A stretch of 64,000 nucleotides of DNA, from contig JBMFUG010000001.1 in assembly GCA_049966695.1 (NCBI GenBank), positions 23,184 through 87,183 of the forward strand, read 5' to 3'. Of this stretch, positions 24,544 to 58,991 are shown piece by piece; the first letter of the stretch is position 1, and each line of letters begins with the position of its first letter. A program made the translations under genes and the position numbers. The notes under the pieces were generated by a model. That model did no database searches and was not told the origin of the DNA. It saw nothing but the letters and a program-made list of their open reading frames with translations. The stretch comes from Acidimicrobiales bacterium (GTDB lineage: Bacteria; Actinomycetota; Acidimicrobiia; Acidimicrobiales; Palsa-688).

Positions 24544-24571
24544 TCATCGGTACGCGTGGCCTGCACCTGAG
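24544..24571 (-). promoter_or_regulatory. Candidate FliA/WhiG (sigma28-type) promoter of flgN-flgK-flgL-fliW-csrA
   Basis: Minus strand reads CTCAGG-N14-ACCGATGA. The -10 box ends 6 nt before the flgN GTG. Confidence 0.5.
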
Positions 24572-24646
24572 CCAGTCGGAAGACTGGCCCCAAGACAGCG
24601 CGCGAAGCGTGGTAGGCGCGCGCCGAACGTGCCAGGCCGGAGCGGC

Positions 24647-25441
24647 TCAGTGCAAAATGCCCAGCTCCAGGGCCTTGGCCAGCGCCTCGTAACGCCCTGC
24701 GGCCCCGAGCTTGGCGTATATGTGCTCCAGGTGGGTCTTGACAGTCGCCGGGGCTACGTAGAGCGTTTCAGCGATCTTGTTGTTCGAAGCACCTCTTGCT
24801 AGCTGAGCTAGTACCAGCCGTTCTCTGGAAGTGAGCAACGCTTCGACCCCTGGCTCATCTTGGGCCGTGCTCGCGAGCGCGCCAGTGCCGTCGTCAGGCG
24901 TACCCGTAAAGCCGACCAGCAGGGGTACCAGTGCCGGGTCGACCGACCTGTCGCCACGCGCAACTGCCTCGACCATGGCGACAAGTTCCTCGGTCGCCAG
25001 CGAGCGCAACGCCAGGCCGGCCACGCCAACATTGAGCATCTCCAACAGCTCAGCGCGCTTGGCTCGCGCCACTAGGGCCACGACAGCGCGACCGGGGAGC
25101 GAGGACACCGCTTCGGCAGCTTCCTTGACGCCAGCGTCACCAAGCACGAGCACCTGCGCTTGTTTTTGGCGTGCAAGCTCAACGCCCTCTGGCACTCCGG
25201 CCGCTTCTCCGAGGACTTGGCAACGCCCACGGTTGAGCACCGTCCTGACCCCAGCTCGGAAGAGAGGTACTTGGTCAACGACAACCGCGCTGGTGCTGCC
25301 CCGTCCCAAGCGGGCCACAGCGGGCCCCACTGAAGTTGTCCCGCTTGCCCGAGCAACTACCCGCGAGGTCCCGCCTACAGCATCTCCGCCGTTTGCGGCT
25401 TTTTCCGCTTCGGTCGCCCCTTTCAAAGACGTCCCAGACAT
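24647..25441 (-). CDS. NarL/LuxR-family response regulator with atypical receiver domain
   Basis: C-terminal HTH LTSRERLVLAQLARGASNNKIAETLYVAPATVKTHLEHIYAKLG. The receiver-like region VVVDQVPLFRAG...QVLVLGDAGV has non-canonical acidic pocket positions. Confidence 0.75.
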   Translation of the reverse strand: MSGTSLKGATEAEKAANGGDAVGGTSRVVARASGTTSVGPAVARLGRGSTSAVVVDQVPLFRAGVRTVLNRGRCQVLGEAAGVPEGVELARQKQAQVLVLGDAGVKEAAEAVSSLPGRAVVALVARAKRAELLEMLNVGVAGLALRSLATEELVAMVEAVARGDRSVDPALVPLLVGFTGTPDDGTGALASTAQDEPGVEALLTSRERLVLAQLARGASNNKIAETLYVAPATVKTHLEHIYAKLGAAGRYEALAKALELGILH

Positions 25442-25487
25442 TGCGCTCCTTTTTCCGGTGACGTGCGCACAGGGTGCTCCGCCTCTA

Positions 25488-25493
25488 ATTGTA
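25488..25493 (-). promoter_or_regulatory. Possible housekeeping-type -10 box (TACAAT) for the LuxR-type regulator
   Basis: Minus strand reads aggcTACAATtag, 47 nt upstream of the ATG. No good -35 box. Confidence 0.3.
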
Positions 25494-25597
25494 GCCTAGC
25501 CGGCACCCTCTGTGGCGACAATCTGTGGGCATTTCCCCATGTCGTGCACGCTCCGTAGCGGAAAGGCTGTCACTAACTAGTTATATAGAGCCAGGCC

Positions 25598-25603
25598 TAC
25601 AAT
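25598..25603 (+). promoter_or_regulatory. Possible housekeeping-type -10 box (TACAAT) for fliA
   Basis: ggccTACAATagc lies in the most AT-rich patch of the divergent spacer, 80 nt upstream of the fliA ATG. Confidence 0.3.
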
Positions 25604-25683
25604 AGCTCGAAGGGGCCAGCGATCGAGAACAGGTTCATCCCTTCGACCGATCTAGTAACCCCCGGCACCGTGCCGAGGCAACA

Positions 25684-26643
25684 ATGGTGCCCTACTCAAG
25701 CGCTGACAGTGGTGATACCACCACTTATCATGTTGCTGGGTCCTGGCGCCATGTGCTCGATCGCGCCGATAGTGGTGCAAAGGCCCAAGCCGCACGAGAG
25801 GACGAGCTGGTACGTTCCCACTTGCCCCTAGTGCATTACATCGTATCTGAGATGGCTAGCCGTATCCCCCGCTATGTATCTCGGGACGACCTGGAATCGG
25901 CTGGCCTGGCGGGGCTCGCACAGGCAGCACGTACGTACGACCCAGACAGAGGTATCTCTTTCCAACGCTACGCTTCGGCCCGTATCAGGGGAGCACTGCT
26001 GGACGAGCTGCGTTCGCGCGACTGGGCCAGCCGCTCAGTCCGGGCCAAGGCGCGCAACGTCGCCGCTGCCACCGAGCAGCTCACCGCCAAGCTTGGCCAC
26101 CAGCCCTCGAAGTCGGAAGTGGCCGCGGCAACAGGCATGAGCCGCAACGACTTAGACGCGTTGGACGACGACGTGCACCGAGCGCTGGTCCTCAACTTCG
26201 AGGCTCTTAACCTCGACGGCAACGCCGAAGAAGTCCTGCTCGTCGGGCCGGGAACGAGCCCAGACGACATAGTGCTGGACAACGAAAGGCGCGCCTATTT
26301 GGTGGCCGCCGTTGCGAACTTGCCTGAGAGGCTAAGGCGGGTGGTGGTCGGGTACTTCTTCGAGGAACTGCCCATGCAAGTGCTAGCCGAGGAACTAGGG
26401 GTCACCGACTCGCGCATCTCCCAGATGCGCGCCGAGGCCCTGGTCCTACTGAAAGACGCCATGAACGCTCAGCTCGACCCCGACCTGTTGCCGAAACAAG
26501 AGCCTTCCTCGCGCCTGACCAAGCGCCGCTGCGCCTACTACGCCGCCGTTGCCGCCCACGACGACTACCGCCGACGTCTCGAGCCAGAAGCAGGCCGCCT
26601 GGCAACCCTGTCGAGCAGGCACGACTTGGCCGCACTGGCGTAG
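25684..26643 (+). CDS. fliA: Flagellar/WhiG-type alternative sigma factor (sigma28 family)
   Basis: Region 2 DDLESAGLAGLAQAARTYDPDRGISFQRYASARIRGALLDELRSRDW. Region 4 LAEELGVTDSRISQMRAEAL. About 55 aa of C-terminal extension. Confidence 0.85.
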   Translation: MVPYSSADSGDTTTYHVAGSWRHVLDRADSGAKAQAAREDELVRSHLPLVHYIVSEMASRIPRYVSRDDLESAGLAGLAQAARTYDPDRGISFQRYASARIRGALLDELRSRDWASRSVRAKARNVAAATEQLTAKLGHQPSKSEVAAATGMSRNDLDALDDDVHRALVLNFEALNLDGNAEEVLLVGPGTSPDDIVLDNERRAYLVAAVANLPERLRRVVVGYFFEELPMQVLAEELGVTDSRISQMRAEALVLLKDAMNAQLDPDLLPKQEPSSRLTKRRCAYYAAVAAHDDYRRRLEPEAGRLATLSSRHDLAALA

Positions 26644-27328
26644 GAGTGCCAACCCGGGCCGAAGGGTGGTGAGCAACAAAGGAGGGTGGCGGGCGGCGAG
26701 AGCGACGGAAGGTCCGGGCGAAGACGCTGCCTTCACGGGTCATCTCAAAAATGGACATGGCTCCAGCCTCCTCGTGGCGACATTCGGACTGCGCCTACAC
26801 CACCTCCCACGGCGGTGCCAGCCTGAACTCGGCCCCGAACATCTCGAACAGCTCGACTTCGTCTATTTGCCCCCCTATCGGTTGCTCTCAGTCGGAGCCG
26901 AAGCTATGGACGCCGGACGGCGCTCGGAAGAAAATTGCGCTCTGGCTTAACCCCAGCCGCATCGATAGCCAATCCACCTGGGTAACAGTGAGCATAAGAG
27001 CGGAAGAAATGTGTGGCTATGCGGCACGTACGAGCCTTGACCCACGCCCCTAATAGAGCCCGTGCTCAGACGGCTGTCGAGGTTCGAGTTCGCGCAGGAA
27101 AAACGCAAGCACCTGGAACCTGTCGACGAGCCCCAGCCGGCGTCTTGAAAAAGTGGGATCAGCCGCCCGTGCCGGCAGGCCCCAAACGGGCGACCGACTA
27201 CGAGAGCTACCTTGTCGTACCGGCACGGCCTTCACAAATGGAGACTTGACTTTCTGACATCGCAATTATGCGGTCCCAAGTGCCGTGCCGTCGTAGTACT
27301 GGGGTTGTAACCACCACGGGCACCGATG

Positions 27329-27356
27329 CTCATGTCCAGCCAACGGACGCCGATCA
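27329..27356 (+). promoter_or_regulatory. Candidate sigma28-type promoter of the glycosyltransferase genes
   Basis: CTCATG-N14-GCCGATCA, then 7 nt, then the in-frame ATG at 27364. Confidence 0.5.
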
Positions 27357-27363
27357 AAAGTAC

Positions 27364-29706: not shown

Positions 29707-32700
29707 CCGCGCGCCGCACGCCGCTCCTCACGCTTCCAGCAAGCGTCTGGCTCACAAGCAGGCCGCGGCCCCGCCTAGCTTCAGCGTCGACTGGGAGGGG
29801 GACATTTTTCAGCACCACAGCCTCTCGCTAGTAAACCAGGCGCTGTGCTCTCGCCTCATCCAGCGAGGCATCGACGTTGCGGTACAGGCATTAGATGCAC
29901 CGCCCCTCAATGGCAGTGCTTTTAGTAGCCCCGTACCAGAACGCAACATCAACGTCACTGGTCGCTCCCCCACCATCACGGTCCGCCATAGCTGGCCGCC
30001 CCGTTTCGACCCTCGGCCTCCCAGCTTGTGGGCACATATACAGCCTTGGGAGTTCGGCGGCGTCCCCGACACGTGGGTAAGCTCCCTCCAGCACGCAGAC
30101 GAAGTATGGGCACCGTCAACGTGGGTCCGAGACAACTACATTGCCAGCGGCCTGTCCGACGACAAGGTGCAGCTAGTACCCAACGGCGTCGACACCACGC
30201 TCTTCACGCCGTACGGCCCTCGGTACCCGCTCTCTACCCAGAAAGCGTTCCGGTTCTTGTTCATCGGTGGGCTCATAGCCCGCAAGGGCATCGACTTGCT
30301 TCTCCGGGCTTACATGGACGCCTTTTCACCCAACGACGACGTGTGCTTGGTCATAAAGGGCTTTGGCTCCAACAGTGTGTACGCCAACGGTTTGTACGAC
30401 ATGGTACGTTCGTTGTGCGCCAGCCAAGAAGGCCCGGCCATAGAGCTCATCGAAGCTGACCTGTCGCAAAATGATATGGCAAGCCTTTACCGCTCCTGCG
30501 ACGTCCTTGTACGCCCTTACCGCGGCGAAGGTTTTGCTTTGCCGGTCGTCGAGGCCATGGCCAGCGGCGTACCCGTGGTGGTCACGGCAGACGGTGCGAC
30601 GGCGGACTTCTGTGATGACTCCGATGCATGGCTTTTACCGAGCCGACGGCAAACTTTACGACAGGTTGGTGGCGTCGGCCCCAGCAGATTGGGTTATTGG
30701 ATGGCCGAACCAGACTTAGGCTATCTAACTAACTTATTGAGAGAGCTGCCGAACCTTCAGGCCGAGTCTGCAATAAAAGCCAAGCGGGCCCGTGACCAGG
30801 TTGTGCACAACTACAGCTGGGACAAAGTCGTCGACGTTGTAGAGGCGCGGCTCAGGAACATGGCAGCGAACAGCACCTCGCCGGCTTTTAGAGACCGCCG
30901 TAATCGCTCCACAGGCCCAACCAGTGCTCAGCCTTACAAGGATTATAAAGTGAACAGCCATGCCGGACTGCCTACAGCACCAAAAGTGCTCCTCTCGGCT
31001 TGCTTGATCGTGAAGGATGAAGAAAAAACACTGCCCGACTGCTTAGAATCCCTCCATCGAGTGGTCGACGAGGTCGTCGTCTACGACACCGGCTCCAGCG
31101 ATGGGACAGTCGCCCTGGCAAAGCGCGCGGGTGCGAGGGTGTTCCAGGGTTACTGGGACAACGACTTCAGCCGAGCGCGCAATGCCGCTTTGGAGCAGTG
31201 CAGCGGGGACTGGGTGCTTTGGGTGGACGCCGACGAGCACTTCGTGTGCGACGCTGTGCCAAGGCTCCGAGGGCTCCTCGCTCAATTGGGACGCGCGGAA
31301 GAGCCTGACGCGTTGCTGGTGGACATCTACAACTTTGGCGGGGACGGCTCCATGCTCGGCAACGTCCATCGCGCATTTCGCATCTTCCGCAAGTCTGCCT
31401 GCTGCTGGTACGGCATGCTGCACGAGCAGGTAGACCTGCGGCCCGCTCTCGCAAGCTCACGCTCCGTCAAGGCGGCCGTGCTGGAGGGTGCCCACATAGA
31501 CCACTACGGCTACCTGGACAAGGTCATCCGCGAGCGTGACAAGCTCGCTCGCAACTTGCGCCTAGCGGAGGCTGCCTTGGAGAGCGAGCCACTAGAGGGC
31601 CAAGAGGGGATGCCGCAGCTCAACTTCGCTCGCTCCCTGGCCGCCCTCGGCCGCTGCGACGAAGCACAGCCTCATTTCGAAGCCGCTCTCGCCTTGGCCC
31701 ACGAAGGCGTCCAAAGGCGCACCGTGCTGCTGCATTTAACCCAAAACCTGCTGACATTAGAGCGTTACGTAGACGTCCTCCGGTACACAGAGATGTTTAG
31801 GCAGGCCAGCAAGAAGACCGGCCTCGTCGACTACCTTGAAGGTGTCGCGCGTAGACGTCTGGGCCAGCTCGACGACGCCATCGGCCTCTTCGAAAGGGCA
31901 GGCGAGCTTGTAGACGACAATGGCTTCGCTTACCCCGAGGCGATGTTGCACGCTGAGCTAGCCGCCGCGCTCGTAGACGCGGGCAGGCCGGCAGACGCCG
32001 CCGAGCACCTTGTCAAACTAGTGGGCGAAGGCCACAACGTCTTGGCGATGACCGCCGCCCTGAAAATCTTTGCGTCAACAGGCAAGCCCCCAGAAGAGCT
32101 TGCTGCCGCTATGCCCGAAGACGACCTCGACAAGGTCGGCGCGGCTCTGCTCCTGGTGCCGCCTGTCGTGGCGGCACCAGTGGCCGAGGCTCTGTACGCA
32201 CGGCTCGGGCCGCGTCCAGCCCTGCTCGCTGCCGCCATCCGCTTCGCGCCCGCCCTGCCCGTCCTGCAGGCGCTCGAGTGGTCCGCACGCCTGAGGGCCA
32301 TCGGCATGTCCAGCCGATGCCCTTTGCTCTCTCAGGCACAGACAGCCGTGCTTGACACACGAGACCGAGTGCGCGCCGCTCTTACAGCTCATGCGGCCTT
32401 TGGGGACCCTGTAGCGGCCTCTCTCGCCCTGGATTTAGCACCGGGCGTGCCCCTAGCTCAGCTGGCGGCCGTTCTTGCCGAGGTCACGGTGCTAGACCCA
32501 CCTATGACACCAGACTTTGCGCGAGCCGTTGCCGGCCCCGGCGCTCCCGCGGCAGGGCCAGTTGGGTCGCCGGACGGTCGCCGCGACGCTGTGGCCACAG
32601 CTCTCCGGGAGCTCGGCTACGGGGACCTAGCTGAGCAAATCAAGAACGGCTGGCAAGATGACGACCCGACCGCGCCCTTTGCAGCTCAGGTCGAGGCCGT

Positions 32701-32716
32701 GGCTGCCGATCGCTAG
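29684..32716 (+). CDS. Fusion protein: GT4-like plus GT2 glycosyltransferase domains with a C-terminal TPR-like helical repeat region
   Basis: GT4 motif RGEGFALPVVEAMASG, paralogous to the preceding gene. GT2 motif SACLIVKDEEKTLPDCLESL...VVVYDTGSSDGT...WVDADE. Ala/Leu-rich helical repeats at the C-terminus. Start is uncertain (ATG 29684 with AAGG SD; tracked ORF starts at 29534). Confidence 0.7.
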   Translation: MRPSRSHNRAPHAAPHASSKRLAHKQAAAPPSFSVDWEGDIFQHHSLSLVNQALCSRLIQRGIDVAVQALDAPPLNGSAFSSPVPERNINVTGRSPTITVRHSWPPRFDPRPPSLWAHIQPWEFGGVPDTWVSSLQHADEVWAPSTWVRDNYIASGLSDDKVQLVPNGVDTTLFTPYGPRYPLSTQKAFRFLFIGGLIARKGIDLLLRAYMDAFSPNDDVCLVIKGFGSNSVYANGLYDMVRSLCASQEGPAIELIEADLSQNDMASLYRSCDVLVRPYRGEGFALPVVEAMASGVPVVVTADGATADFCDDSDAWLLPSRRQTLRQVGGVGPSRLGYWMAEPDLGYLTNLLRELPNLQAESAIKAKRARDQVVHNYSWDKVVDVVEARLRNMAANSTSPAFRDRRNRSTGPTSAQPYKDYKVNSHAGLPTAPKVLLSACLIVKDEEKTLPDCLESLHRVVDEVVVYDTGSSDGTVALAKRAGARVFQGYWDNDFSRARNAALEQCSGDWVLWVDADEHFVCDAVPRLRGLLAQLGRAEEPDALLVDIYNFGGDGSMLGNVHRAFRIFRKSACCWYGMLHEQVDLRPALASSRSVKAAVLEGAHIDHYGYLDKVIRERDKLARNLRLAEAALESEPLEGQEGMPQLNFARSLAALGRCDEAQPHFEAALALAHEGVQRRTVLLHLTQNLLTLERYVDVLRYTEMFRQASKKTGLVDYLEGVARRRLGQLDDAIGLFERAGELVDDNGFAYPEAMLHAELAAALVDAGRPADAAEHLVKLVGEGHNVLAMTAALKIFASTGKPPEELAAAMPEDDLDKVGAALLLVPPVVAAPVAEALYARLGPRPALLAAAIRFAPALPVLQALEWSARLRAIGMSSRCPLLSQAQTAVLDTRDRVRAALTAHAAFGDPVAASLALDLAPGVPLAQLAAVLAEVTVLDPPMTPDFARAVAGPGAPAAGPVGSPDGRRDAVATALRELGYGDLAEQIKNGWQDDDPTAPFAAQVEAVAADR
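32685..32712 (+). promoter_or_regulatory. Candidate sigma28-type promoter of fliC
   Basis: CTCAGG-N14-GCCGATCG lies inside the last codons of the upstream gene, 73 nt before the fliC ATG. Confidence 0.5.
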
Positions 32717-32785
32717 AGACGGCCCAGCACTGGGCAACCACAGGGTGCTTACGGAAGAGCCCCCTTTAGACCCCATGGAGGAAAA

Positions 32786-33916
32786 ATGGGTCTTGACATT
32801 GTCACCAACATAATGGCCCAGCAGGCCTCGAACGACCTGTCCACCAACGAAGCCAATATGCAGTCAGCTTTGGAAAAGCTGTCCTCTGGCTACCAGATCA
32901 ACAACGCGGCAGACGACGCATCTGGCCTAGTGATAAGCCAGCACTTGCAGGCTCAGATAGGCGCCTTCCAGCAAGCGCAGTCCAACACGCAGGCCGGCAT
33001 CAACGTTATCCAGACAGCAAGCGGCGCTCTCAACACGGTGAGCACGATCCTGCAGCGCATCAACACCCTTGCAGTGGAAGCTCAAAACGGCACAGCCACT
33101 GACAATACAGCGATCACCGCGGCCCAGGACGAGGTGAACCAGTCTCTCTCGTCAATAGTCGACATCGCCCAGACCACCGTCTACGGCGACAACCAGCTCC
33201 TCGTCCACGGCTCAGCGAGCAGCGTCAACTATACGTTCCAGGTTGGCTACGACTCCTCTAACGCGAGCCAAGTCGCCTTCTCAGTCTCGGCGTTGACCCT
33301 GGCAAACCTTGGCCTGGTCATGAACTCTGTCGACTTCACGGCGGCTGGCGGCATTTCCAGTGTCGTCAGCAACCTCGCTTCTGGTACTTACGATATCAGT
33401 ATCTCCGCTGATGCCTCCGCCGGTGCCTCCGCAATGGCGATCAATATTGCGAATGGCAGTGATGTGCTGGGCACTGCGGTTGTAACCGATGGCGGCACGG
33501 CCGGCGAAGTCGCTACGATCAACCTCGGGACTTTCGGCGTGGTCAACCTCACTCTAAGCGGTCCGCTGACATCGGCAACCGCGCTCACGGCAACGCAGAC
33601 ATATGCGAACATCAACAGTACGACGAGCCTAGCCTTGGGCAGTGCCGACGTCATAGACGTCGTACAAAATGCCATCGCGACGGTATCGTCAATGCAAGGC
33701 GAGTTCGGTGCTTACCAAAACGAACTGCAGCACATCTCCGACAACGAGACTGTGATGGTACAAAACCTGCAGTCGTCCAACGCAAGCATCGAGGACACCA
33801 ACATGGCATCGGAGATGGTCAACTTCACCCAGGACCAAGTCCTCGTCCAAGCAGGGGTCTCTATGCTGGCGCAGGCCAACCAGATACCCCAGTACGTGCT
33901 CAAGTTGCTCGGCTAA
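32786..33916 (+). CDS. fliC: Flagellin
   Basis: N-terminal NIMAQQASNDLSTNEANMQSALEKLSSGYQINNAADDASGL. C-terminal MVNFTQDQVLVQAGVSMLAQANQIPQYVLKLL. Confidence 0.92.
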   Translation: MGLDIVTNIMAQQASNDLSTNEANMQSALEKLSSGYQINNAADDASGLVISQHLQAQIGAFQQAQSNTQAGINVIQTASGALNTVSTILQRINTLAVEAQNGTATDNTAITAAQDEVNQSLSSIVDIAQTTVYGDNQLLVHGSASSVNYTFQVGYDSSNASQVAFSVSALTLANLGLVMNSVDFTAAGGISSVVSNLASGTYDISISADASAGASAMAINIANGSDVLGTAVVTDGGTAGEVATINLGTFGVVNLTLSGPLTSATALTATQTYANINSTTSLALGSADVIDVVQNAIATVSSMQGEFGAYQNELQHISDNETVMVQNLQSSNASIEDTNMASEMVNFTQDQVLVQAGVSMLAQANQIPQYVLKLLG

Positions 33917-33949
33917 GGCTGGGCAGTCCTTGGCACGTGCCAACGGGCA

Positions 33950-36728: not shown

Positions 36729-37193
36729 ATGAACACGCCAGATGGCCGGCAAGCTTACCTAACGAACTCAGTTGTGAGCGCCCCCCCCGAGCGCTTGCTT
36801 ACGATGCTTTACGACGCCCTAGTCAACAACATCGCGGTAGCCGAAGACGCATTAGAAAAACACGACTTCTACACGTTGAACCAGCGGCTCGTACGCTCAC
36901 AGGAGATCGTCTTGGAACTGCGAGCGAGCTTAAAGCCTGAACTTTGGTCTGGAGGGCCGGCGCTCGCCGCAATCTACACCTACGTTTATGGCCTACTGGT
37001 CAAAGGCAACGTCCACAAAGACCCGGGCGCTCTGTCGGAAGCCCGCAAGCTCCTCGAGCCTCTCCAGTCTGCCTGGCACCAAGCTGCCGATATAGCAGCA
37101 GCAGCGCGCGCCGCCAAGGGGCGCCTCGCCGCCGACCGAGCGTCCACTGACGGCCTCGGCAACGATCCCGAACCGCTAAGCGCCAGTGCCTAG
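36729..37193 (+). CDS. fliS: Flagellar export chaperone FliS
   Basis: Motifs AYLTNSVVSAPPERLLTMLYD and IVLELRASL. Positioned after fliD. Confidence 0.85.
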   Translation: MNTPDGRQAYLTNSVVSAPPERLLTMLYDALVNNIAVAEDALEKHDFYTLNQRLVRSQEIVLELRASLKPELWSGGPALAAIYTYVYGLLVKGNVHKDPGALSEARKLLEPLQSAWHQAADIAAAARAAKGRLAADRASTDGLGNDPEPLSASA

Positions 37194-37683
37194 AGCACCC
37201 AGCTCGCGCACGGCTGCTCGGGTCACGGCTGCTCAGGTCACGGGCGCTCGGGAAAACGAGGTCGCGCGCACGGTCGCCCTCTACGTCGCCAGCGAGCTCA
37301 GGGCCGGCGAGCGTATCTTCAGCGAGCACAAGGCCGGTCAGCCCACGAGCGGCCGGTCCGCCGGGGCGGTGAGCGCACCCGGCCCCCAGGAACGGCTCGA
37401 GCTATTGGAACGCACTGTGGCGGCCCAAGCGGCCGCACTTCGCAGGACGCCCTTGGCCATGCCTCTACCGCGTGAAGTGCTCACCCTCCTAACGGCACCA
37501 CCCACCTCACTGGCTGGCGTACCGGCGAAAGACATGCCGCGCGTAGTAGCGCTCATGGACCAACTGCAGCTACTAGTTGAGGATCTCACCTTGCGCGAGC
37601 GCTCCCTGGCTGGGCGTATCGCGTGCGTGCGTGCTGCTCGCCGCGCAGGCCCGGCTCCTCACGTCGTCGATTGCTCAAGTTGA
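37186..37683 (+). CDS. Hypothetical protein in the fliT position
   Basis: GTG start overlaps the fliS stop by 8 nt. Ala/Arg-rich with no recognisable motif. The coding call rests on position only. Confidence 0.35.
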   Translation: MPRAPSSRTAARVTAAQVTGARENEVARTVALYVASELRAGERIFSEHKAGQPTSGRSAGAVSAPGPQERLELLERTVAAQAAALRRTPLAMPLPREVLTLLTAPPTSLAGVPAKDMPRVVALMDQLQLLVEDLTLRERSLAGRIACVRAARRAGPAPHVVDCSS

Positions 37684-37810: not shown

Positions 37811-38326
37811 TTAGGACGCTAGCTTGCGCTTGATATCACGGATCTCGGCGTTGACCTGGTCAAAACGGGCATCGATCGAGATGAAGCCTCTCTGCATATC
37901 CGCGCGCAGCTCCGACACCTGCCCCTGCAGACTGGTCAAAGCGGCCCCCATGACATTGAAACCCTCTTCGACTAATGCAGCCAAGCGCTGCATGTGGTCA
38001 CGCAGCTCATCCAGGTCCTGGCGCTGCTGGGCCACTACGTCGACGAGGTTGCTGACCGTGCCAGCCAGGCTGCTGACCGTGCCAGTGAGGCTCCCCACGT
38101 TGGCGGCCAGGTCGCTGACCGTGCTGGTAAGGCTGGCCAGGTCCTGGCGCTGCTGGGCAAACGCGTCGATAAGGCCGTCAATTTTCGTTGCCATGCCGGC
38201 AACGACCTCGGGCAACTGGAGGAGCTCAGCGCTAAGCAGCTCTCGCCTCACTGTGTCCCGGAAGCCTGCGTCAGCTCTCAGGGCATCAAGAAAGTGCCTC
38301 TTGGCAGCTTCGTCCATCATCGTCAT
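37811..38326 (-). CDS. Coiled-coil protein with internal repeats, unknown function
   Basis: Start set at ATG 38326 (MTMMDEAAK, SD GGAG). Repeats: AQQRQDL x2, (D/S)ELRxxMQR x2, and heptad SLxGTVS. The only minus-strand gene inside the flagellar block. Confidence 0.5.
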   Translation of the reverse strand: MTMMDEAAKRHFLDALRADAGFRDTVRRELLSAELLQLPEVVAGMATKIDGLIDAFAQQRQDLASLTSTVSDLAANVGSLTGTVSSLAGTVSNLVDVVAQQRQDLDELRDHMQRLAALVEEGFNVMGAALTSLQGQVSELRADMQRGFISIDARFDQVNAEIRDIKRKLAS

Positions 38327-38581
38327 GGTACTTCTCCGGTTCAAAAGTAAACGTCGTAATAGGGAGGGCAGCCACAACGGGCCAGCGGAGCCGTAACGCC
38401 ACGATGATGCCAAAGCCCACTGACCGAAACCCACTTGCCAAGGCAACTATAGCCCGTGCCGCACCCCGGCGGGCGGTACGAGCCGGTGCAGCACCCCAGC
38501 GGGCGACGCACCCGACAACGCTCGTCGCTGGCTCGCCACACGAAAACTCGGACACTCGAACGCTCTGCGTGGCCTGGCTTT

Positions 38582-38609
38582 CTCAAGTAAGCCGCAGCCC
38601 TGCCGATCA
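38582..38609 (+). promoter_or_regulatory. Candidate sigma28-type promoter of the flgB operon
   Basis: CTCAAG-N14-GCCGATCA, then 5 nt, then ATG 38615 of a 41-codon upstream ORF. Confidence 0.5.
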
Positions 38610-38736
38610 CGCAGATGAGCAGGGAAGCAATTACCCGTACGCCACGGACTGGCAGGGCCCTAACTTCTTCGGAGGCAGTGGTGTACCTTCTGCTCGCAGC
38701 GCCGCACCGGGCGGCATTAGATCTAGCGGCACGGCC

Positions 38737-39099
38737 ATGAACGGCCCCCTTTCCGACCTGGCCACGAACGCCCTGTACGAGGCGATGCAGGGGCTATGGG
38801 CACAACAGCAGGCAGTGGCCAACAACGTGGCCAACGTCGACACGCCTGGCTACCAGGCAAAAGATGTGAGCTTTGAGTCGAGCTTGTCCCAGGCGATAGC
38901 GGCGGGTGACCCGTCTCAGATGCAAATTTCTGTCACTAATTCGACCGCTCCAGACCAACAGGACGCCAACAACGTAAACCTGGCAGACCAGATGGCGGAG
39001 GGTGAAAAAGCAAGCATGCAGTTCCAGACCATGGTGGACGCGATGAACGCCAAGTTCCAGTTGCTTAGCACAGCCATAAGCGAGTCAGCGAGCGGCTAG
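38737..39099 (+). CDS. flgB: Flagellar basal-body rod protein FlgB
   Basis: LWAQQQAVANNVANVDTPGYQAKD. Start set at ATG 38737, which has no SD upstream. The tracked ORF begins at 38404. Confidence 0.8.
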   Translation: MNGPLSDLATNALYEAMQGLWAQQQAVANNVANVDTPGYQAKDVSFESSLSQAIAAGDPSQMQISVTNSTAPDQQDANNVNLADQMAEGEKASMQFQTMVDAMNAKFQLLSTAISESASG

Positions 39100-46432: not shown

Positions 46433-48438
46433 GTATGACAACGATCGCCCCGGCTGAACCAGGCACAACCCAGCCGGCCACAGCACCGGCTGGGCCCTCT
46501 GCCGGCACCACTGGCGCGCAGACCTTCGCAGGCATGCTCGCCGTCATGGGGGTCGTGCCCCAGGCTCAACCGGCCCAACCTCCAGCACCAACCGGCACTG
46601 CGGCCCAACAGACAAGCTTGGCGCCGCCAGCCAGCGTCACGGCCACGGCCGCTCCTGCTGGCGCTGCTCTTGCGACCAGCCCGGCGTCCGCCCCTACTGA
46701 GGCACCCGGGGAAGCCGGCAGCAGCTCTACGGCTCAGGCATCTAGCCCCGTCACCCAGGCCGGCAGCTCTATGGCCCAACCGGGCAGCTCACAGACGGAC
46801 GGGCCCGGTACCGCGACCATTACGGGCAGCCAGACCACCGACCACGCCCAGGGCAGCCTCAACGACCAAGCCGGGACAGGCAACAGCGCAACTGCCCAGG
46901 TCCCAGCGAAAGGCACAGCACAAGTCGGCACAGCACAAGTCGGCACAGCACAAGTCGGCACAGCGCAAGTCGGCACAGCACAACCGGCCCTGTCGGTCGC
47001 GCTGCTCACCGGCAGCGCCACGGAGGGCCAGCGCACTGTGGCAGCAGGGCCCGGAGCTGCAACTGAGGCCGCCGGTGCCAACGCCGTCTCTCAACATGCG
47101 ACAACCCTGGTTGTCCCGGGGGGGACGGCCACTTCTGGGACAGCGGTAGTCACGGTCAAGGCACTGGCCCCCGGCAGTCCCGCCGAACCTGCTGGGCCTG
47201 CTGGGCCTGCTGGGCAGAGTGCTCTTCTTGCCGCACCTGGGAGCTCGGCCAACCTCGCCGCACCTGGGAGCTCGGCCAACCTCGCCGCACCTGGGAGCTC
47301 GGCCAACACGACGGCTACCCAGTCGAGCGCAAGTGCAGCCACCGCGGTCCGGGCCGAGGGCACGTTAGCCAACAGGCCAGGGACTGGCGCAACACCAGCT
47401 TCGGCGCGAGACAGCCGTCCTGGTGCCCAAGCGGGGACGAACCCGTCGGCGGTCACAGACCGAGGCCAAGATGGCCCCCTGGTCGCCGGCTCTCAAGCCG
47501 GAGCCCAGGACCAGCAACCGGTACTGGCCAGCCACGGCGATAACGGTGGCGGCCAGGGCGCTGCGGGCCAAGCCGATAGCAGCACAGGTGGAGCTCCGGG
47601 CCAAGCCGGTGCCAGCGCGGATGCGGCCCACGGCGATAACGGTGGCGGCCAGGGCGCTGCGGGCCAAGCCGATAGCAGCACAGGTGCAACGAACCTGTCT
47701 CAAAAGTCTCCTGCCTCTGCTGGCACTGCGTCCTCACAAAGCTTCCGCCCCGCCACCATTGCCACGGCTCCATCCCAGGACGCCCACAGCCCCTCAACCG
47801 GGCCAACCGGCAACACCTCCGGTTCCCAGTCGCCCGGGGCTGGGACGGGCGCCCAAAAGACCGCCATCTCCGCCAGCAACCAGCCCGGTGCAAGCCAGAC
47901 ATCCTCGAGCACGGCCACGGCACCAACTGCTGCGCTGCTCCAATCGTCTCGCGGCGCTCCCGTCGCCGCGGGCCAAGCAACGACTAGTGCCAATAGCGCC
48001 AACCAGCCCGCAAGCACGTTGCCTATCGCTAACCAATTGGCCGATGTCATCACGCCAGCAGCCAACCAGCCTGACGGCACCTACCAGGTGAGCATCCATC
48101 TTCACCCCGAAGAGCTGGGGACGGTACACGTCGAGCTGCACATTGAGTCGGGAGTGGTCAACGTCTCAGTGCACACCGAAGGCGACGCCACAAGGGATCT
48201 GCTGCGCCAGAACATGGGCCAGCTGCGCCAGCAACTGGCGGGAAGTGGTCTAGCAACCGGGCACTTCGACGTCGAGAGCGGCTCGGCACAGGCCCACCAA
48301 GACAGCGGGCGCCCGCTCACCAGCCCATTGCCACCCGGGCCGTCCGCTGACAACCAAGAAGAGCAAGTGCCGTTAGTACCAGACAGTGGGCCCTACCTGT
48401 TGCCCTTGGTCAACGGCGCCCTAGACGTAAGGCTGTGA
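46429..48438 (+). CDS. fliK: Flagellar hook-length control protein FliK (repeat-expanded)
   Basis: C-terminal Flg_hook-type domain VSIHLHPEELGTVHVELHIESGVVNVSVHTE. Start ATG 46429 overlaps the upstream stop (ATGA). 669 aa. Confidence 0.7.
   Translation: MSMTTIAPAEPGTTQPATAPAGPSAGTTGAQTFAGMLAVMGVVPQAQPAQPPAPTGTAAQQTSLAPPASVTATAAPAGAALATSPASAPTEAPGEAGSSSTAQASSPVTQAGSSMAQPGSSQTDGPGTATITGSQTTDHAQGSLNDQAGTGNSATAQVPAKGTAQVGTAQVGTAQVGTAQVGTAQPALSVALLTGSATEGQRTVAAGPGAATEAAGANAVSQHATTLVVPGGTATSGTAVVTVKALAPGSPAEPAGPAGPAGQSALLAAPGSSANLAAPGSSANLAAPGSSANTTATQSSASAATAVRAEGTLANRPGTGATPASARDSRPGAQAGTNPSAVTDRGQDGPLVAGSQAGAQDQQPVLASHGDNGGGQGAAGQADSSTGGAPGQAGASADAAHGDNGGGQGAAGQADSSTGATNLSQKSPASAGTASSQSFRPATIATAPSQDAHSPSTGPTGNTSGSQSPGAGTGAQKTAISASNQPGASQTSSSTATAPTAALLQSSRGAPVAAGQATTSANSANQPASTLPIANQLADVITPAANQPDGTYQVSIHLHPEELGTVHVELHIESGVVNVSVHTEGDATRDLLRQNMGQLRQQLAGSGLATGHFDVESGSAQAHQDSGRPLTSPLPPGPSADNQEEQVPLVPDSGPYLLPLVNGALDVRL
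46912..46983 (+). repeat. 15-nt in-frame tandem repeat (GTAQV) x about 4.5 in fliK
   Basis: ggcacagcacaagtc is iterated. Read directly. Confidence 0.9.
47230..47310 (+). repeat. 27-nt in-frame tandem repeat (AAPGSSANL) x3 in fliK
   Basis: gccgcacctgggagctcggccaacctc is iterated. Confidence 0.9.
47532..47686 (+). repeat. About 59-nt identical direct repeat x2 (period 96 nt) in fliK
   Basis: ccacggcgataacggtggcggccagggcgctgcgggccaagccgatagcagcacaggtg occurs at 47532 and 47628. Confidence 0.9.
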
Positions 48439-48442
48439 ACCG

Positions 48443-50516: not shown

Positions 50517-50545
50517 CTCATACGCCTGTGCTGCCCTGCCGATCG
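50517..50545 (+). promoter_or_regulatory. Candidate internal sigma28-type promoter upstream of flbD-motAB
   Basis: CTCATA-N15-GCCGATCG, with a spacer 1 nt longer than the other six copies. Lies 64 nt before the flbD ATG. Confidence 0.35.
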
Positions 50546-50609
50546 TGAAGGAGCCGGCCAACGGACTGGCCGGGCGCTTTTAGCGCTGGCAACCCGACGG
50601 AGCGGGGCA

Positions 50610-50879
50610 ATGATCCTACTCACACGGCTCAACGGCCCGCAGTTCGCGGTCAACGCGGACTTGATCGAGCGTGCCGAAGCGACTCCCGACACCGTCCTCA
50701 CCCTTGTCGACGGCACAAAGTACCTTGTCGAAGAGAGCGTGCAGGAGGTGATCGAGCGGGTACGCACGTTCCGCGCCTCGGTACTGGTCGCTGCCAAGGA
50801 GCTTGAGCGGACGGCAGACCAGCCCCTGGCCACTCTAAGGGCCCTTCCCAAGCCTGCCAACGAAGCTCAGGAGACCTAG
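50610..50879 (+). CDS. flbD: Flagellar protein FlbD
   Basis: MILLTRLNGPQFAVNADLIERAEATPDTVLTLVDGTKYLVEESVQEVIERV. Start ATG 50610 (tracked ORF begins at 50505). Confidence 0.75.
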   Translation: MILLTRLNGPQFAVNADLIERAEATPDTVLTLVDGTKYLVEESVQEVIERVRTFRASVLVAAKELERTADQPLATLRALPKPANEAQET

Positions 50880-50881
50880 CC

Positions 50882-51679: not shown

Positions 51680-51680
51680 G

Positions 51681-52550: not shown

Positions 52551-52664
52551 GCAGGGTTCATATGACCGAGACAGCCGCGACAGCCCTGAGACTTATGACC
52601 GAGACCGACCGACAAAAAACACAGACCGGCAGGCCGGCCACCGAGGCAGCCCTAAGGCAAGAAG

Positions 52665-53120: not shown

Positions 53121-53222
53121 CTCGCCAGTCTGCAATAACCCGCCGCCTATGCCATAGCCCCCCGTGCACCAACAGCAGGCCACGTAGCCAAAAGACCTCC
53201 CAGCCACCCCAGCGCGGCATTG

Positions 53223-53250
53223 CTCAGGTCGAGGTCATGCCTGCCGATCA
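53223..53250 (+). promoter_or_regulatory. Candidate internal sigma28-type promoter of fliM
   Basis: CTCAGG-N14-GCCGATCA, then 8 nt, then the in-frame ATG at 53259. Its first 13 nt are identical to those of the fliC copy (CTCAGGTCGAGG). Confidence 0.5.
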
Positions 53251-53258
53251 CAGCGCAG

Positions 53259-54173
53259 ATGACCGCGCCCGCCAACCAGAGCACCGTGGTGCCGTTGGGG
53301 CGCGCAGGCAGGCCGAAACCGCTTAGGAGGTTCCGGATCAGGCCTGCCAGCACCCTGAAAGACGAGCACGAACAGGTCTTGGTCCTCGTTGGCCAGAGCT
53401 TCTGCCGTCTGTTCGGTGCGGACATGTCGACCTTCGTGCGCGGCGACGTCGACATCGACATGTTGCCCGTCCAGCAGTGGTCATGGGACGACCTGCTCAA
53501 CTCGTTGCCCGAGCCTTACTGCGCGGGCCGCCTGGCGATGCCGCCGATGGTGGGCACGGGGCTCGTCACCTTGGACATGTCGCTCGCTACTGCGGTCGTC
53601 GAAAAGCTCCTGGGCGGGGCGGGCCGGCCCCAGGAACGTGACGAGCCGCTGACCGACGTCGAAGTGACGCTCTTATCGGAACTTCACCAGCATGCCGCCG
53701 AGGACATGGCTGAGGCTCTCTCCTTGGTCGTCGCCACCAAGCCCGTCACGACCCGCCAAGAAAGCCGCCTCGAGCTGATCCGCGCCGTACCGGGGCACAC
53801 GCTGCTCGTAGCCCTCGAGTTCGACATCGACATGAAAAGTGCCAGCGGGCGCCTGCGCATTGCCATCCCAGCGGAAGCGCTCATGGCCCATTTGGAGGCC
53901 TTCGCAGGCACCTCCACTAGCAGTGCCACCTTGAACGAGACCGGCAGGCTGTCGCTTTGCGCCGTCGAGGCAAGTGTGCGCTTCAACGACACTCCTATTA
54001 CTTCGCGCCAGCTGCTCGAACTTGAGCCCGGAGATGTCCTGGCCCTCGCTCACCCGACGACCAGCCCCCTTACCCTTTACGTCGGCGGCGTCCCCTTTTT
54101 AAAGGTCCTAGCTGGCCGCCGAGGCGCACAAAAAGCGTTCGCAGTAATTGGGCCTTACAAACAAACAACCTGA
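53259..54173 (+). CDS. fliM: Flagellar motor switch protein FliM
   Basis: Positioned between fliL and fliN. Has a RRFRIRP...QVLVLVGQSFCRLF core region and a C-terminal SpoA-like LEPGDVLAL. Start set at 53259. Confidence 0.75.
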   Translation: MTAPANQSTVVPLGRAGRPKPLRRFRIRPASTLKDEHEQVLVLVGQSFCRLFGADMSTFVRGDVDIDMLPVQQWSWDDLLNSLPEPYCAGRLAMPPMVGTGLVTLDMSLATAVVEKLLGGAGRPQERDEPLTDVEVTLLSELHQHAAEDMAEALSLVVATKPVTTRQESRLELIRAVPGHTLLVALEFDIDMKSASGRLRIAIPAEALMAHLEAFAGTSTSSATLNETGRLSLCAVEASVRFNDTPITSRQLLELEPGDVLALAHPTTSPLTLYVGGVPFLKVLAGRRGAQKAFAVIGPYKQTT

Positions 54174-54192
54174 CAGATGAGCAAGGTAACAG

Positions 54193-55230: not shown

Positions 55231-55240
55231 GGGACCATCG

Positions 55241-55723: not shown

Positions 55724-55763
55724 CCCTCGCGTTCGTGGCCCCGAGAACGGGCCCTGGAGCACC

Positions 55764-56690: not shown

Positions 56691-56755
56691 CGCAGTTCGC
56701 GACACGGCCTGGTGGCCATTATGGCTACCAGGAGCCGCCCGGTCCCGGAGGTGAA

Positions 56756-57028
56756 ATGAACGACTCCTCAGTCATAGAAATAGCGGTCCGGATGATGACC
56801 GTGACCGCTGAACTGGCCGCGCCCATGCTGGTCACGGCGCTCGCTATTGGCTTAGCCGTTGCCCTGTTGCAGTCCGTCACGTCGATCCAGGAAGTGACGC
56901 TCACCTTCGTCCCGAAGATGGCGGGCATAGCGCTGGCCATCGTCTTGGCCGGCCACTGGATGCTCAACACGCTCGTTGGTTTTACCGACCAGCTCTTCCA
57001 AATGGTCCCTCAACTTGTGGGTGCCTAA
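56756..57028 (+). CDS. fliQ: Flagellar export gate protein FliQ
   Basis: 90 aa. LLQSVTSIQEVTLTFVPKMAGIALAI. SD GGAGGTGA. Confidence 0.85.
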   Translation: MNDSSVIEIAVRMMTVTAELAAPMLVTALAIGLAVALLQSVTSIQEVTLTFVPKMAGIALAIVLAGHWMLNTLVGFTDQLFQMVPQLVGA

Positions 57029-57037
57029 GGCGCGGCT

Positions 57038-57811
57038 GTGACCTTTGAGCTCGGAGCCGCAAGTTTCTTCGCCTTTCTCCTTGCACTGGCACGGGCGGCC
57101 GCCTGGCTTAGTTTTGCTCCCCCATTTTCAGCCAGCGCCCTGCCCGCCCTGGTCAAGTTCGGCTTTGCAGCAGCTCTCGCGCTCACGGTCAGCCCCCAGT
57201 TCGCCGCGACGGTCGGCAGCGGCTCGCTTAGCACCGCATCGTTCATCACGGACCTTGTCGCCCAGGTCGCCACGGGTGCAGGGCTCGGCTATGTCACCTC
57301 ATTACTGCTGTCTGCGGTCGCCTCGGCAGGCGCCCTAGTTGACGTGTCGAGCGGTCTCAGCGCTGCCCAGTCCTTTGACCCCTTCTCGGGCAACGTAAGC
57401 GCAGTCACCTCCAACACCTACTCTCTCCTCATGACAACGCTGTTGTTCGCCACCCAGGGTTACTTGCTGATAGTCAAGGGCTTTCTCACTTCCTTCCAGG
57501 CCGTAGGCCTGGCGGCGGGCCCAGCCAGCCTGCTTGGGGCTGCCCTGGCCTCAGAAATGGGCTTTTTCTTCCTAGCAGCTATAGAAATGGCCGCCCCGGT
57601 GATCGCTGCGATGTTCCTCGCTTACGTGGCGCTTGGGCTCCTCACTCGTGCTGCGCCCCAGCTCAACGTGATGGCCCTCGGGTTCGGTACCAACATTGCG
57701 CTTGCCTTTGTGGTCGTGACGGCCTGCCTGGCGCTGTTGCCAGGAGCGGTCAGCACCCTCGTAGACCGAGCCGTGCGCGACAGCCTTGGCTTTTTGGGCA
57801 TCACGCCCTGA
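57038..57811 (+). CDS. fliR: Flagellar export gate protein FliR
   Basis: 257 aa polytopic protein positioned between fliQ and flhB. Confidence 0.8.
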   Translation: MTFELGAASFFAFLLALARAAAWLSFAPPFSASALPALVKFGFAAALALTVSPQFAATVGSGSLSTASFITDLVAQVATGAGLGYVTSLLLSAVASAGALVDVSSGLSAAQSFDPFSGNVSAVTSNTYSLLMTTLLFATQGYLLIVKGFLTSFQAVGLAAGPASLLGAALASEMGFFFLAAIEMAAPVIAAMFLAYVALGLLTRAAPQLNVMALGFGTNIALAFVVVTACLALLPGAVSTLVDRAVRDSLGFLGITP

Positions 57812-57822
57812 GCGGGGCGGCC

Positions 57823-58947
57823 ATGGCCAGCAGCGACAAGCACTCGAAAACCGAAAAGCCCACCCCCCGGCGCAAGAGGGAGGCCCGGCGTGAGGGCAAG
57901 GTTGCCCGCACCCCCGAGCTCGTCACCTGGCTAGTAGTCCTAGCGGGGACCTATCTAGTCCAGTACACGGCCAAGCAGACCTATGCCCTGTGCGAACGGC
58001 TCGCCTCCCAGGTGGCGGGGGCCATGAGCCACCCAGCTTTGCCGAACGACCTCGCCGTAGCCAAAAGCGCGGCCAGCGGGGCCCTTCTCGCTATAGCCCC
58101 CGCGCTGCTTGGGTCTATGGTTATCGCCCTAGCGGTCAACCTGGCCCAGACCCGGGGCCTTGTGACCTTCAAGCCTCTCAAGCCGTCCCTGAAAAACCTC
58201 AACCCAAAAAATGGCCTGTCACGCATGTTCGGCACCCGTGGCTTATGGGAGCTGGCCAAGCAGGCAGTGAGGGTGGGCCTGCTGAGCTTGGTGGCTTGGC
58301 AGTCGGTGGCAGGGCTGCTGCCCCTCATGACCGAGCACGGGCCGCTGTCGAGCGCTGGCATTGCCTCGTTGGTCGCCGCTCGCGCGCTCAACCTGGCCCG
58401 TGAGGTGGCCGGCATCAGCCTTGTGCTCGCCGCCGCTGACTACATTTTCCAGTGGCGCAAGAACGCCCAGAGCCTGCGCATGAGCAAAGAAGAGGTCAAG
58501 GAGGAAGGTAAGCAGACCGAGGGCAACCCAGTGACCAAGGGCGCGCTGCGCCGCCGCCAGCGGCAGTTCTCCCGGAGGCGCATGATCGCATCGGTTGCCA
58601 AGGCAGATGCGGTCGTCCTAAACCCGACCCACTACGCCGTGGCAGTGAAGTACGTGCGCGGGCAGGGCGCGCCCCGCGTGGTCGCCAAAGGCACGGACTT
58701 CCTCGCCCTGCGCATCCGAGAGGAGGCCGTCGCCCACCGTGTGCCCCTGGTAGAAGACCCACCGTTGGCGAGAGCTCTCTACGTCGCCTGCGAGATCGAG
58801 CAAGAAATACCTAGGGAGCTCTACGAGGCCGTTGCCCGCCTCCTCACGTTTATCTACTCGCTGAAAGCGCGTGGGGGGGCGGCTCGCTTGGACGGCGGGG
58901 CTCACCGGACGTCCCTGCTCGTCCCGGCGCGGGCACGCGCGGGCTAG
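57823..58947 (+). CDS. flhB: Flagellar export switch protein FlhB
   Basis: N-terminal KTEKPTPRRKREARREGKVARTPEL. Autocleavage motif VVLNPTHYAVAV (NPTH). Confidence 0.9.
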   Translation: MASSDKHSKTEKPTPRRKREARREGKVARTPELVTWLVVLAGTYLVQYTAKQTYALCERLASQVAGAMSHPALPNDLAVAKSAASGALLAIAPALLGSMVIALAVNLAQTRGLVTFKPLKPSLKNLNPKNGLSRMFGTRGLWELAKQAVRVGLLSLVAWQSVAGLLPLMTEHGPLSSAGIASLVAARALNLAREVAGISLVLAAADYIFQWRKNAQSLRMSKEEVKEEGKQTEGNPVTKGALRRRQRQFSRRRMIASVAKADAVVLNPTHYAVAVKYVRGQGAPRVVAKGTDFLALRIREEAVAHRVPLVEDPPLARALYVACEIEQEIPRELYEAVARLLTFIYSLKARGGAARLDGGAHRTSLLVPARARAG

Positions 58948-58963
58948 TGCTCGGCGCTCAGTG

Positions 58964-58991
58964 CTCAGCTGAGACCCCCGCCTGCCGATAG
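58964..58991 (+). promoter_or_regulatory. Candidate internal sigma28-type promoter of flhA-flhF
   Basis: CTCAGC-N14-GCCGATAG, 85 nt upstream of the flhA TTG. The -35 element lies in the 10-bp palindrome CTCAGCTGAG. Confidence 0.4.

Follow-up and report, generated by a model that had tools for sequence, protein, structure and literature searches.

How is the assembly of a flagellum ordered when its early and late genes appear to answer to the same kind of promoter? The question is raised by a stretch of 64,000 nucleotides (nt) from an Acidimicrobiales bacterium (contig JBMFUG010000001.1, positions 23,184 to 87,183 of the forward strand; hereafter the window), which carries a near-complete flagellar cluster of the Gram-positive type at 20.5-62.5 kb, as annotated with Pfam and NCBIfam. 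Seven copies of a bipartite motif, in which CTCA is followed after 16 or 17 nt by GCCGAT or a close variant, stand at the operons of this cluster. Judged from their sequence and setting, they are very probably promoters for RNA polymerase with the sigma-28 factor that the cluster itself encodes (FliA, WhiG1-like, 25684-26643).

In the 64 kb of the window there are five matches to CTCA-N16-GCCGAT, all on the plus strand (27329, 32685, 38582, 53223, and 58964), against a mean of 0.12 in 100 dinucleotide-preserving shuffles, none of which reached five. Relaxing the -10 half to NCCGAT yields six matches versus 0.30 expected, the additional one being the minus-strand site of flgN (24546-24571), and allowing a 17-nt spacer admits the flbD site at 50517, for a total of seven. 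The spacer is N16 in six of the seven sites and N17 in the remaining one; likewise, six -10 boxes read GCCGAT and one reads ACCGAT. All seven had been listed in a first-pass annotation of this DNA, and every sequence, coordinate, and strand given there was reproduced. The same annotation had found no CTCA at this spacing beside about 30 other GCCGAT or ACCGAT occurrences between 19.5 and 62.8 kb. The result holds for the whole window, where GCCGAT is present 63 times, both strands counted, and only the sites of the cluster have CTCA at the right distance. When a weight matrix was built from the seven sites, their own scores ranged from 21.9 to 32.8 bits, the next best score was 13.7 (128 kb, both strands), and the best in 30 shuffled windows was 20.0. 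Run on the window against these controls, the matrix scan thus returns exactly seven sites with none close, and the gap in score argues that the window holds no eighth. The other intergenic gaps of the cluster, among them those before fliD, flgC, fliL, flgK, fliW, and csrA, contain no further site, their best match reaching 8 of 10 core positions. The loose pattern CTCA-N14-18-GCCGA is barely enriched (12 matches versus 4.7 expected), which places much of the specificity in the T that follows GCCGA and in the fixed spacing.

Each site is co-oriented with the gene downstream of it and lies either in an intergenic gap or in the final 30 nt of the preceding open reading frame (ORF). The earlier claim that every copy points into a flagellar gene therefore stands, provided that flagellin-glycosylation genes are counted, and the co-orientation at the 5' ends of operons is strict. 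On the minus strand, the site at 24544..24571 (CTCAGG-N14-ACCGATGA) heads flgN-flgK-flgL-fliW-csrA, with the GTG of flgN at 24537, 6 nt past the -10 element; here and below, distances are counted from the end of that element to the start codon, and for all seven sites they stay within about 200 nt. All other sites are on the plus strand. The one at 27329..27356 precedes the glycosylation genes, that is, a glycosyltransferase-methyltransferase (GT-MT) ORF ending at 29706 and a glycosyltransferase/TPR ORF ending at 32716, and is followed after 7 nt by an in-frame ATG at 27364. The fliC gene (32786-33916) has its site at 32685..32712 and a 5' leader of about 73 nt, and this promoter probably also serves fliD-fliS. 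The unit flgB-flgC-fliE-fliF-fliG-fliH-fliI-fliJ-(NlpC/SLT)-fliK-flgD-flgE is preceded by a site at 38582..38609 (flgB ATG at 38737, 127 nt). The site with the 17-nt spacer, at 50517..50545, belongs to flbD-motA-motB-fliL (flbD ATG at 50610, 64 nt), and that at 53223..53250 to fliM-fliN/Y-fliO-fliP-fliQ-fliR-flhB (ATG at 53259, 8 nt). Finally, the motif match upstream of flhA (58964..58991, 85 nt) would serve flhA (59077-61128) and the ORF downstream of it (61109-62503), whose only resemblance, below threshold, is to FlhF. The seven units take in all flagellar genes of the window, those for the basal body and for export included.

The arrangement is not confined to this genome. The loci compared (labelled L001-L097) comprised 80 around FliP in species-representative genomes, six around FliA homologues, and 80 around FlgC in metagenomes. 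For both the sigma factor and FliP, homologues come from metagenome-assembled genomes (MAGs) of Acidimicrobiales/Acidimicrobiaceae, the best being 93% and 87% identical, which marks the source as an uncultured member of the class Acidimicrobiia. Protein identity between the window and its Acidimicrobiales relatives is 52-90%. In these relatives the motif is found at the orthologous place while the spacers have diverged, and the -35 variants (CTCA, CTAA, TTCA, and CTTA) are those of the published consensus xT(C/A)Ax. The flgN site recurs as CT(C/A)AGGT-N13-ACCGAT followed by GTG in L081, L082, L083, and L086, with its unusual ACCGAT retained, and in the same four loci the glycosylation genes have analogous promoters, 6-8 nt before a start codon. 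An orthologous site is found 73-76 nt upstream of fliC in L081, L082, L083, and L092, and before flgB in eight loci (L083, L087, L089, L091, L092, L093, L095, and L097). For flbD they are located 52-70 nt upstream in L001-L005, L013, L020, and L021, among others, the range being 64-70 nt in Acidimicrobiales. The fliM motif stands 8-9 nt before the ATG in L001-L005, L007, and L013, and it was also found in L010, L016, L020, L021, and L022. Sites 80-110 nt upstream of flhA occur in L001-L006, L012, and L013, with weaker ones in L010, L021, L022, and L033.

Beyond the order, Actinokineospora inagensis (L020) has the motif ahead of flbD and fliM, Sinomonas (L015 and L018) has it ahead of flbD, and several unclassified Actinomycetota MAGs have it ahead of one or more of the flbD, fliM, and flhA operons. 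In the Bacillota loci retrieved with the same FliP query, it is absent before flbD, fliM, and flhA.

The spacing between motif and start codon provides a further line of evidence. For flgN, GT-MT, and fliM, an in-frame start codon follows the -10 element after only 6, 7, and 8 nt, respectively, and no Shine-Dalgarno sequence lies in between. This close spacing is kept in relatives (8-9 nt for fliM in seven loci, 6 nt for flgN, and 6-8 nt for the glycosylation genes), and in L082 gene callers independently placed the start of FlgN at the same point. The mRNAs of the three genes are probably leaderless, as is common in Actinomycetota. Since start codons 6-9 nt past the -10 box put the beginning of the transcript where a sigma-28 promoter would put it, the leaderless arrangement offers an indirect marker of the transcription start and, among the evidence taken from sequence alone, speaks most strongly for working promoters. 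It also follows that the mechanically listed ORF starts at 27268 (GT-MT) and 53220 (fliM) are probably too far upstream.

As the first-pass annotation had noted, the -10 half is the canonical box of sigma-28 promoters (PMC8325347, PMC4183435). Its second remark, that the -35 half CTCA departs from the TAAA of enterobacteria and Bacillus, is correct as the motif is written, and the contrast shrinks when the alignment is shifted by one base: TCAGGT (in cTCAGGT) then faces the TAAAGT of E. coli across the canonical 15-nt spacer. The enterobacterial class-3 promoter, TAAAGTTT-N11-GCCGATAA, accordingly shares both the -10 element and the spacing. Close matches of the TCAAGT type are even found in E. 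coli itself, before flgKL (TCAAGTCC...GCCGATAA) and before the class-2 operon fliLMNOPQR (TCAAGACG...GCCGATAAG; PMC4183435 Table 2). Within the Actinomycetota, WhiG1 is the sigma clade tied to flagellar clusters, with the general consensus xT(C/A)Ax-N16-GCCGA (Denis et al. 2026, PMC13595943); all seven sites of the window fit this consensus, and the CGA core of their -10 half is invariant. WhiG2 of Streptomyces and Rubrobacter belongs to the same sigma family and reads a near-identical promoter, T(A/C)AA-N16-GCCGATAA. It governs sporulation or type IV pili under restraint by RsiG in complex with c-di-GMP, whereas the sigma gene of the window resides in a flagellar cluster.

That sigma gene, fliA (25684-26643, plus strand), is assigned to the FliA/WhiG family by TIGR02479 and by sigma-70 regions r2, r3, and r4. 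It sits between the flgN operon and the glycosylation-fliC genes, an arrangement shared with L081-L083 and L086. Among solved structures WhiG is the best match (E = 9e-39), the S. venezuelae WhiG scoring 137 bits versus 133 bits for a deposited FliA chain, so that the protein is no closer to the one than to the other. With its gene inside the flagellar cluster, as in the WhiG1 clade, it is a candidate WhiG1-like factor. The protein has 319 residues (263-349 in relatives); its sigma regions end near residue 260, leaving a C-terminal tail of about 60 residues, and it carries an N-terminal extension of about 40.

If FliA is the reader, what reads fliA? Four genes in and around the cluster are without a site: fliA, the response regulator divergent from it, a divergent coiled-coil ORF (37811-38446), and a group-2-like sigma gene (19500-20435). 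The earlier statement that only fliA and the LuxR-type regulator lack the motif is right in so far as neither has it in full, but fliA does possess a conserved -10-like box. This box, TCAYCC-N5-6-RCCGATCYAG (within 25600-25683), lies some 30-33 nt before the start codon and is conserved in seven loci. A standard autoregulatory promoter of fliA was considered and rejected, as no CTCA is present at N15-17 upstream of the conserved CCGATC. Other conserved blocks upstream of fliA, on the way to the response regulator gene, are AACTAGTYA, ATGTAGCGCA, and TTTCCCCACG (in the window and in L081-L086 at about 9900-10000). The response regulator itself (24647..25441, minus strand), a protein of NarL/LuxR type with a GerE domain and NarL-family matches, has no FliA motif and keeps its position next to fliA in L081-L086. 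By this position, it is a candidate upstream regulator of fliA.

The proposed mechanism would then be as follows. Some input, for which the divergent response regulator or the conserved upstream box are the candidates, would turn on fliA. Once expressed, FliA would turn on early and late genes together, so that transcription would be essentially two-tiered. The first-pass annotation had suggested a flat or a feed-forward hierarchy from the presence of the motif before early operons as well, and the flat form gains support from the relatives, where the early sites are kept in position; given this conservation, a one-tier hierarchy is the best reading. We infer, in particular, that FliA is the factor that recognizes the sites, that transcripts begin 6-9 nt past the -10 element, and that the early operons have no other promoters.

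Several observations weigh against this interpretation. The sigma factor passes the TIGR02479 model only narrowly (190 bits for a cut-off of 189.6). The weight matrix was trained on the same seven sites, making it circular for them and informative for the rest of the window. The flbD site has the 17-nt spacer, and the closest relatives of the window except L001 show a weaker form of it, TTCA...G(T/A)CGAT. A simple terminator scan marked no unit ends, its hits being fewer than or equal to those in shuffled sequence, and such a scan is uninformative in GC-rich DNA. Similarly, a scan for sigma-70-like consensus promoters gave hits at chance level with none in the relevant gaps, and it is insensitive to the degenerate elements of high-GC Actinomycetota.

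The last point bears on a rather unlikely alternative, that of dual control. Here, promoters of a housekeeping sigma factor or of an activator would start the flgB, flbD, fliM, and flhA operons and FliA would boost them, giving a feed-forward rather than a flat hierarchy. Since actinobacterial housekeeping promoters are not reliably detectable by the scan used, such promoters might have escaped notice, and there are precedents for the combination. The fla/che operon of B. subtilis has sigma-A and sigma-D promoters, E. coli has operons with class-2 together with class-3 promoters, and a FliA site precedes the class-2 operon fliLMNOPQR (PMC4183435 Table 2). In A. missouriensis, TcrA directly activates five flagellar units in addition (PMC13083903), and in the window and its relatives a NarL/LuxR regulator is conserved beside fliA. 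What dual control explains less well is that three units begin translation 6-9 nt past the FliA -10 element: transcripts from promoters further upstream would carry a leader, and none of the three units shows a Shine-Dalgarno sequence to go with it. The relevant gaps also contain no match to a sigma-70-like consensus. Work by Jang et al. from 2016 is said to have mapped a single start per unit in A. missouriensis.

The conserved regulator, together with the restriction of the motif to the cluster, could also be taken to mean that the motif is a binding site for a transcription factor, such as the adjacent NarL/LuxR protein, and not a sigma promoter. This is highly improbable for a motif that is asymmetric and bipartite, with a promoter-like spacing of 16-17 nt, strict co-orientation, a fixed distance of 6-9 nt to leaderless starts, and a -10 half identical to the canonical sigma-28 box; sites of the NarL family are usually paired heptamer repeats. 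Recognition by another sigma factor is hardly more credible. The group-2-like gene at 19500-20435 keeps the same place beside the cluster in all relatives examined, but its product has region 1.2 and its best models are of the RpoD/SigB type, and sigma factors of this kind read a TANNNT-type -10 element and not GCCGAT. Moreover, L084 and L085 have kept the gene at its position and lack the flagellar genes beside it. As for an artefact of chance or of base composition in GC-rich DNA, the enrichment of the loose pattern by a factor of only about 2.5 could be held in its favour. With five exact matches against 0.12 expected, not one in 100 shuffles reaching five, and orthologous sites kept while the spacers between them diverge, this explanation is effectively refuted. 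Promoters read by FliA thus remain the preferred explanation of the seven sites.

As to its gene content, the cluster comprises on the minus strand csrA, fliW, flgL, flgK, flgN, and the response regulator. The plus strand begins with a block of the FliA/WhiG sigma gene, two large glycosyltransferase/methyltransferase genes, fliC, fliD, and fliS; a second block contains flgB, flgC, fliE, fliF-J, an NlpC/SLT hydrolase gene, fliK, flgD, and flgE; and a third has flbD, motA, motB, and fliL, then fliM, fliN/Y, fliO-R, and flhB, and finally flhA with the ORF downstream of it. No flgF, flgG, or FlgM was recognised in the cluster by Pfam and NCBIfam annotation. The small ORFs that might encode FlgM, namely 26751-27053 and 26549-26950 after fliA and 37186-37683 after fliS, gave no Pfam match at E <= 0.1. 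In this respect the cluster agrees with the reported absence of FlgFG and FlgM from Acidimicrobiia, Nitriliruptoria, and Actinomycetia (PMC10746217). In E. coli, FlhDC drives the early operons and FlgM restrains FliA, whereas the cluster of the window has neither FlhDC nor FlgM, and no promoter other than the FliA motif is recognisable at its early operons. B. subtilis differs as well: there, a single fla/che operon under sigma-A holds the early genes and ends in sigD, and FlgM is present.

The closest parallel is found in Actinoplanes. The FliA of A. missouriensis, a member of the WhiG1 clade, has a consensus quoted in PMC12871210 as CTCA at -35, N16-17, and GCCGAACT at -10. In that species all flagellar genes, early ones included, are organised in 11 units under FliA1/FliA2 promoters (PMC13083903). 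For Actinoplanes, Cellulomonas, and Geodermatophilus, several sites have been predicted within each flagellar cluster (PMC13595943, Fig. 6), and the same paper notes the absence of FlgM. The window shares with Actinoplanes the consensus CTCA-N16-17-GCCGA, in the form in which it is quoted, together with the coverage of all flagellar genes, a cluster-associated sigma factor, and the lack of FlgM (PMC12871210, PMC13083903, PMC13595943). Multiple in-cluster sites, as predicted for the three genera, are likewise of the kind seen in the Actinokineospora and Sinomonas loci. The differences lie elsewhere. The extended -10 element of the window, GCCGAT(C/A)(A/G) (GCCGATCA/CG/AG), is nearer to the canonical GCCGATAA than is the GCCGAACT quoted for Actinoplanes. 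There are seven units and one fliA in the window versus 11 units and three fliA paralogues in Actinoplanes. The organism of the window is probably unicellular and hence without a sporangium programme, in contrast to the sporangium-forming Actinoplanes. It also belongs to the class Acidimicrobiia, and Actinoplanes to the Actinomycetia (Micromonosporaceae).

The promoter motif and the one-tier layout have therefore already been described in Actinoplanes and are no departure for the Actinomycetota. The novelty of the motif finding is the lineage, class Acidimicrobiia, which the text of PMC13595943 does not mention. A sigma-28 promoter of the CTCA type and a layout in which FliA covers all operons are accordingly not peculiar to Actinoplanes, being conserved in Acidimicrobiia and in several lineages of Actinomycetia. 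From this distribution, both features probably date back to the ancestor shared by those classes of Actinomycetota that have no FlgM. The result also sharpens a question already raised in the literature, namely how flagellar assembly is ordered without FlgM or tiered promoters.

One possible answer is suggested by the 5' leaders of the units that are not leaderless. The flgB leader (38610-38740, plus strand) contains a hairpin GCCA-CGGAC-TGGC (38641-38653) with GGA in its loop, a GGAGG Shine-Dalgarno sequence, and an upstream ORF (38678-38740) that this Shine-Dalgarno sequence serves. The block GAGCAGGGAAGCA-N4-CCGTACGCCA(C/G)GGACTGGCA...TTCGGAGG-N4-5-(A/G)TGGTGTAC is nearly invariant in ten loci, among them L083 and L087-L094, whose FlgB proteins are only 43-83% identical, the hairpin there having the form GCCA-NGGAC-TGGC. 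In nine of these loci the peptide of the upstream ORF (20-55 codons) opens with M/V-V-Y, and the rest of its sequence is not conserved. In all ten, the stop codon of the upstream ORF overlaps the start of flgB (ATGA in eight, ATGnnTAA or GTGnnTAG in two), a pattern which indicates that flgB is translationally coupled to the upstream ORF. RNAalifold additionally predicts an invariant long-range helix of 8 bp, GUACGCCA:UGGUGUAC, that competes with the local GGA hairpin; neither structure shows covariation.

Comparable elements occur in three further leaders, all on the plus strand. The flbD leader has one hairpin of 7 bp at 50554-50573 (CCGGCCA-ACGGAC-TGGCCGG) and another at 50593-50606 (CCCG-ACGGAG-CGGG) that overlaps the Shine-Dalgarno sequence. 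The flhA leader has a hairpin at 59023..59040 (GGCCC-AAGGGATG-GGGCC, GGA in the loop) as well as a GGAGG Shine-Dalgarno sequence. In the fliC leader (32740-32790), GCUU-ACGGAA-GAGC is followed by a hairpin with GGAGGA in its loop and the start codon in its stem; a G-U pair is included in these structures. Together, the flgB, flbD, and flhA leaders hold five GGA-loop hairpins in 349 nt versus 0.2 expected, a 24-fold enrichment over the rest of the window (Poisson P ~3e-6). The hairpins of the flbD, flhA, and fliC leaders are shared with relatives, L001-L006, L012, L013, and L021 among others. In L021 and L095, the stem sequences have changed while the GGA loop is retained. The thermodynamic z-scores of the four leaders are unremarkable (+1.6 to -1.4), so that the case for structure rests on conservation, on the placement of GGA, and on the differing stems of L021 and L095. 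An Rfam search of 19-64 kb (E <= 1) returned a single spurious match to a long noncoding RNA, placing the leaders in no described family. One more GGA hairpin lies inside fliK (47376), probably by chance.

These leaders of the flgB, flbD, flhA, and fliC operons resemble binding sites of CsrA. Leaders that CsrA targets have at least two GGA motifs, as a rule in the loops of hairpins and with one of them across the Shine-Dalgarno sequence, and all four leaders combine GGA-loop hairpins with a Shine-Dalgarno sequence that contains GGA. The genes of a putative partner system are at hand. At the end of the flgN operon, on the minus strand (20568..21464), lie csrA (20568-20960), recognised in Pfam and NCBIfam, and fliW (21015-21464), recognised in NCBIfam; both are kept in L081-L083 and L086. 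The operon order flgN-flgK-flgL-fliW-csrA is that of B. subtilis. The hag leader of B. subtilis has two CsrA sites, and the fliC leader of the window, with an ACGGA hairpin and with its Shine-Dalgarno sequence GGAGGA placed in a loop, is similar. The known action of CsrA in B. subtilis is limited to hag, whereas the CsrA-like sites of the window are present in early-operon leaders too. With no FlgM, and with FliA transcribing all operons at once, it is conceivable that the order of assembly is imposed post-transcriptionally by CsrA-FliW, a proposal to be taken as tentative. Such a checkpoint would act on the translation of early operons as well as of flagellin, and the three leaderless units, including that of csrA and fliW themselves, would escape it. 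If true, the role of CsrA would widen from the flagellin-only checkpoint of Bacillus to the basal-body, motor, and export-gate operons. A literature search for a part of CsrA in the flagellar control of actinobacteria returned no paper, and the leader elements, a side observation here, may be more novel than the promoter motif itself.

In practical terms, the locus supplies defined sequences for experiments, that is, seven promoters, three apparent leaderless starts, the CsrA-like leader elements, and the upstream ORF of flgB. It also yields a clean matrix with which the motility regulons of the many uncultured Acidimicrobiales genomes can be annotated.

The surroundings of the cluster offer some additional observations. 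The group-2-like sigma-70 gene (19500-20435, minus strand; region 1.2, best models RpoD/SigB) adjoins csrA and keeps its place in all six FliA-locus relatives, including those without adjacent flagellar genes. Two of these relatives, L084 (contig of 4.1 Mb) and L085 (2.35 Mb), retain fliA, the LuxR-type regulator, and a flgN-like gene with a FliA-type promoter, and have no flgK, flgL, fliW, csrA, or fliC nearby. In these genomes, either the flagellar cluster has been lost or the sigma factor has been re-used, as has happened to WhiG. In the relatives L081-L086, genes upstream of the cluster code for a TrwC relaxase, for proteins like TrbC/TrbL, and for a membrane protein resembling LPG synthase; the region corresponds in position to about 14900-19500 of the window. 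The flagellar cluster may thus border a conjugative element. Within the cluster, fliK contains short in-frame tandem arrays (46912-47307 and 47548-47677) with periods of 15, 9, and 27 nt and an identical 34-nt stretch repeated 96 nt apart, a pattern typical of the 'ruler', the variable region of FliK.

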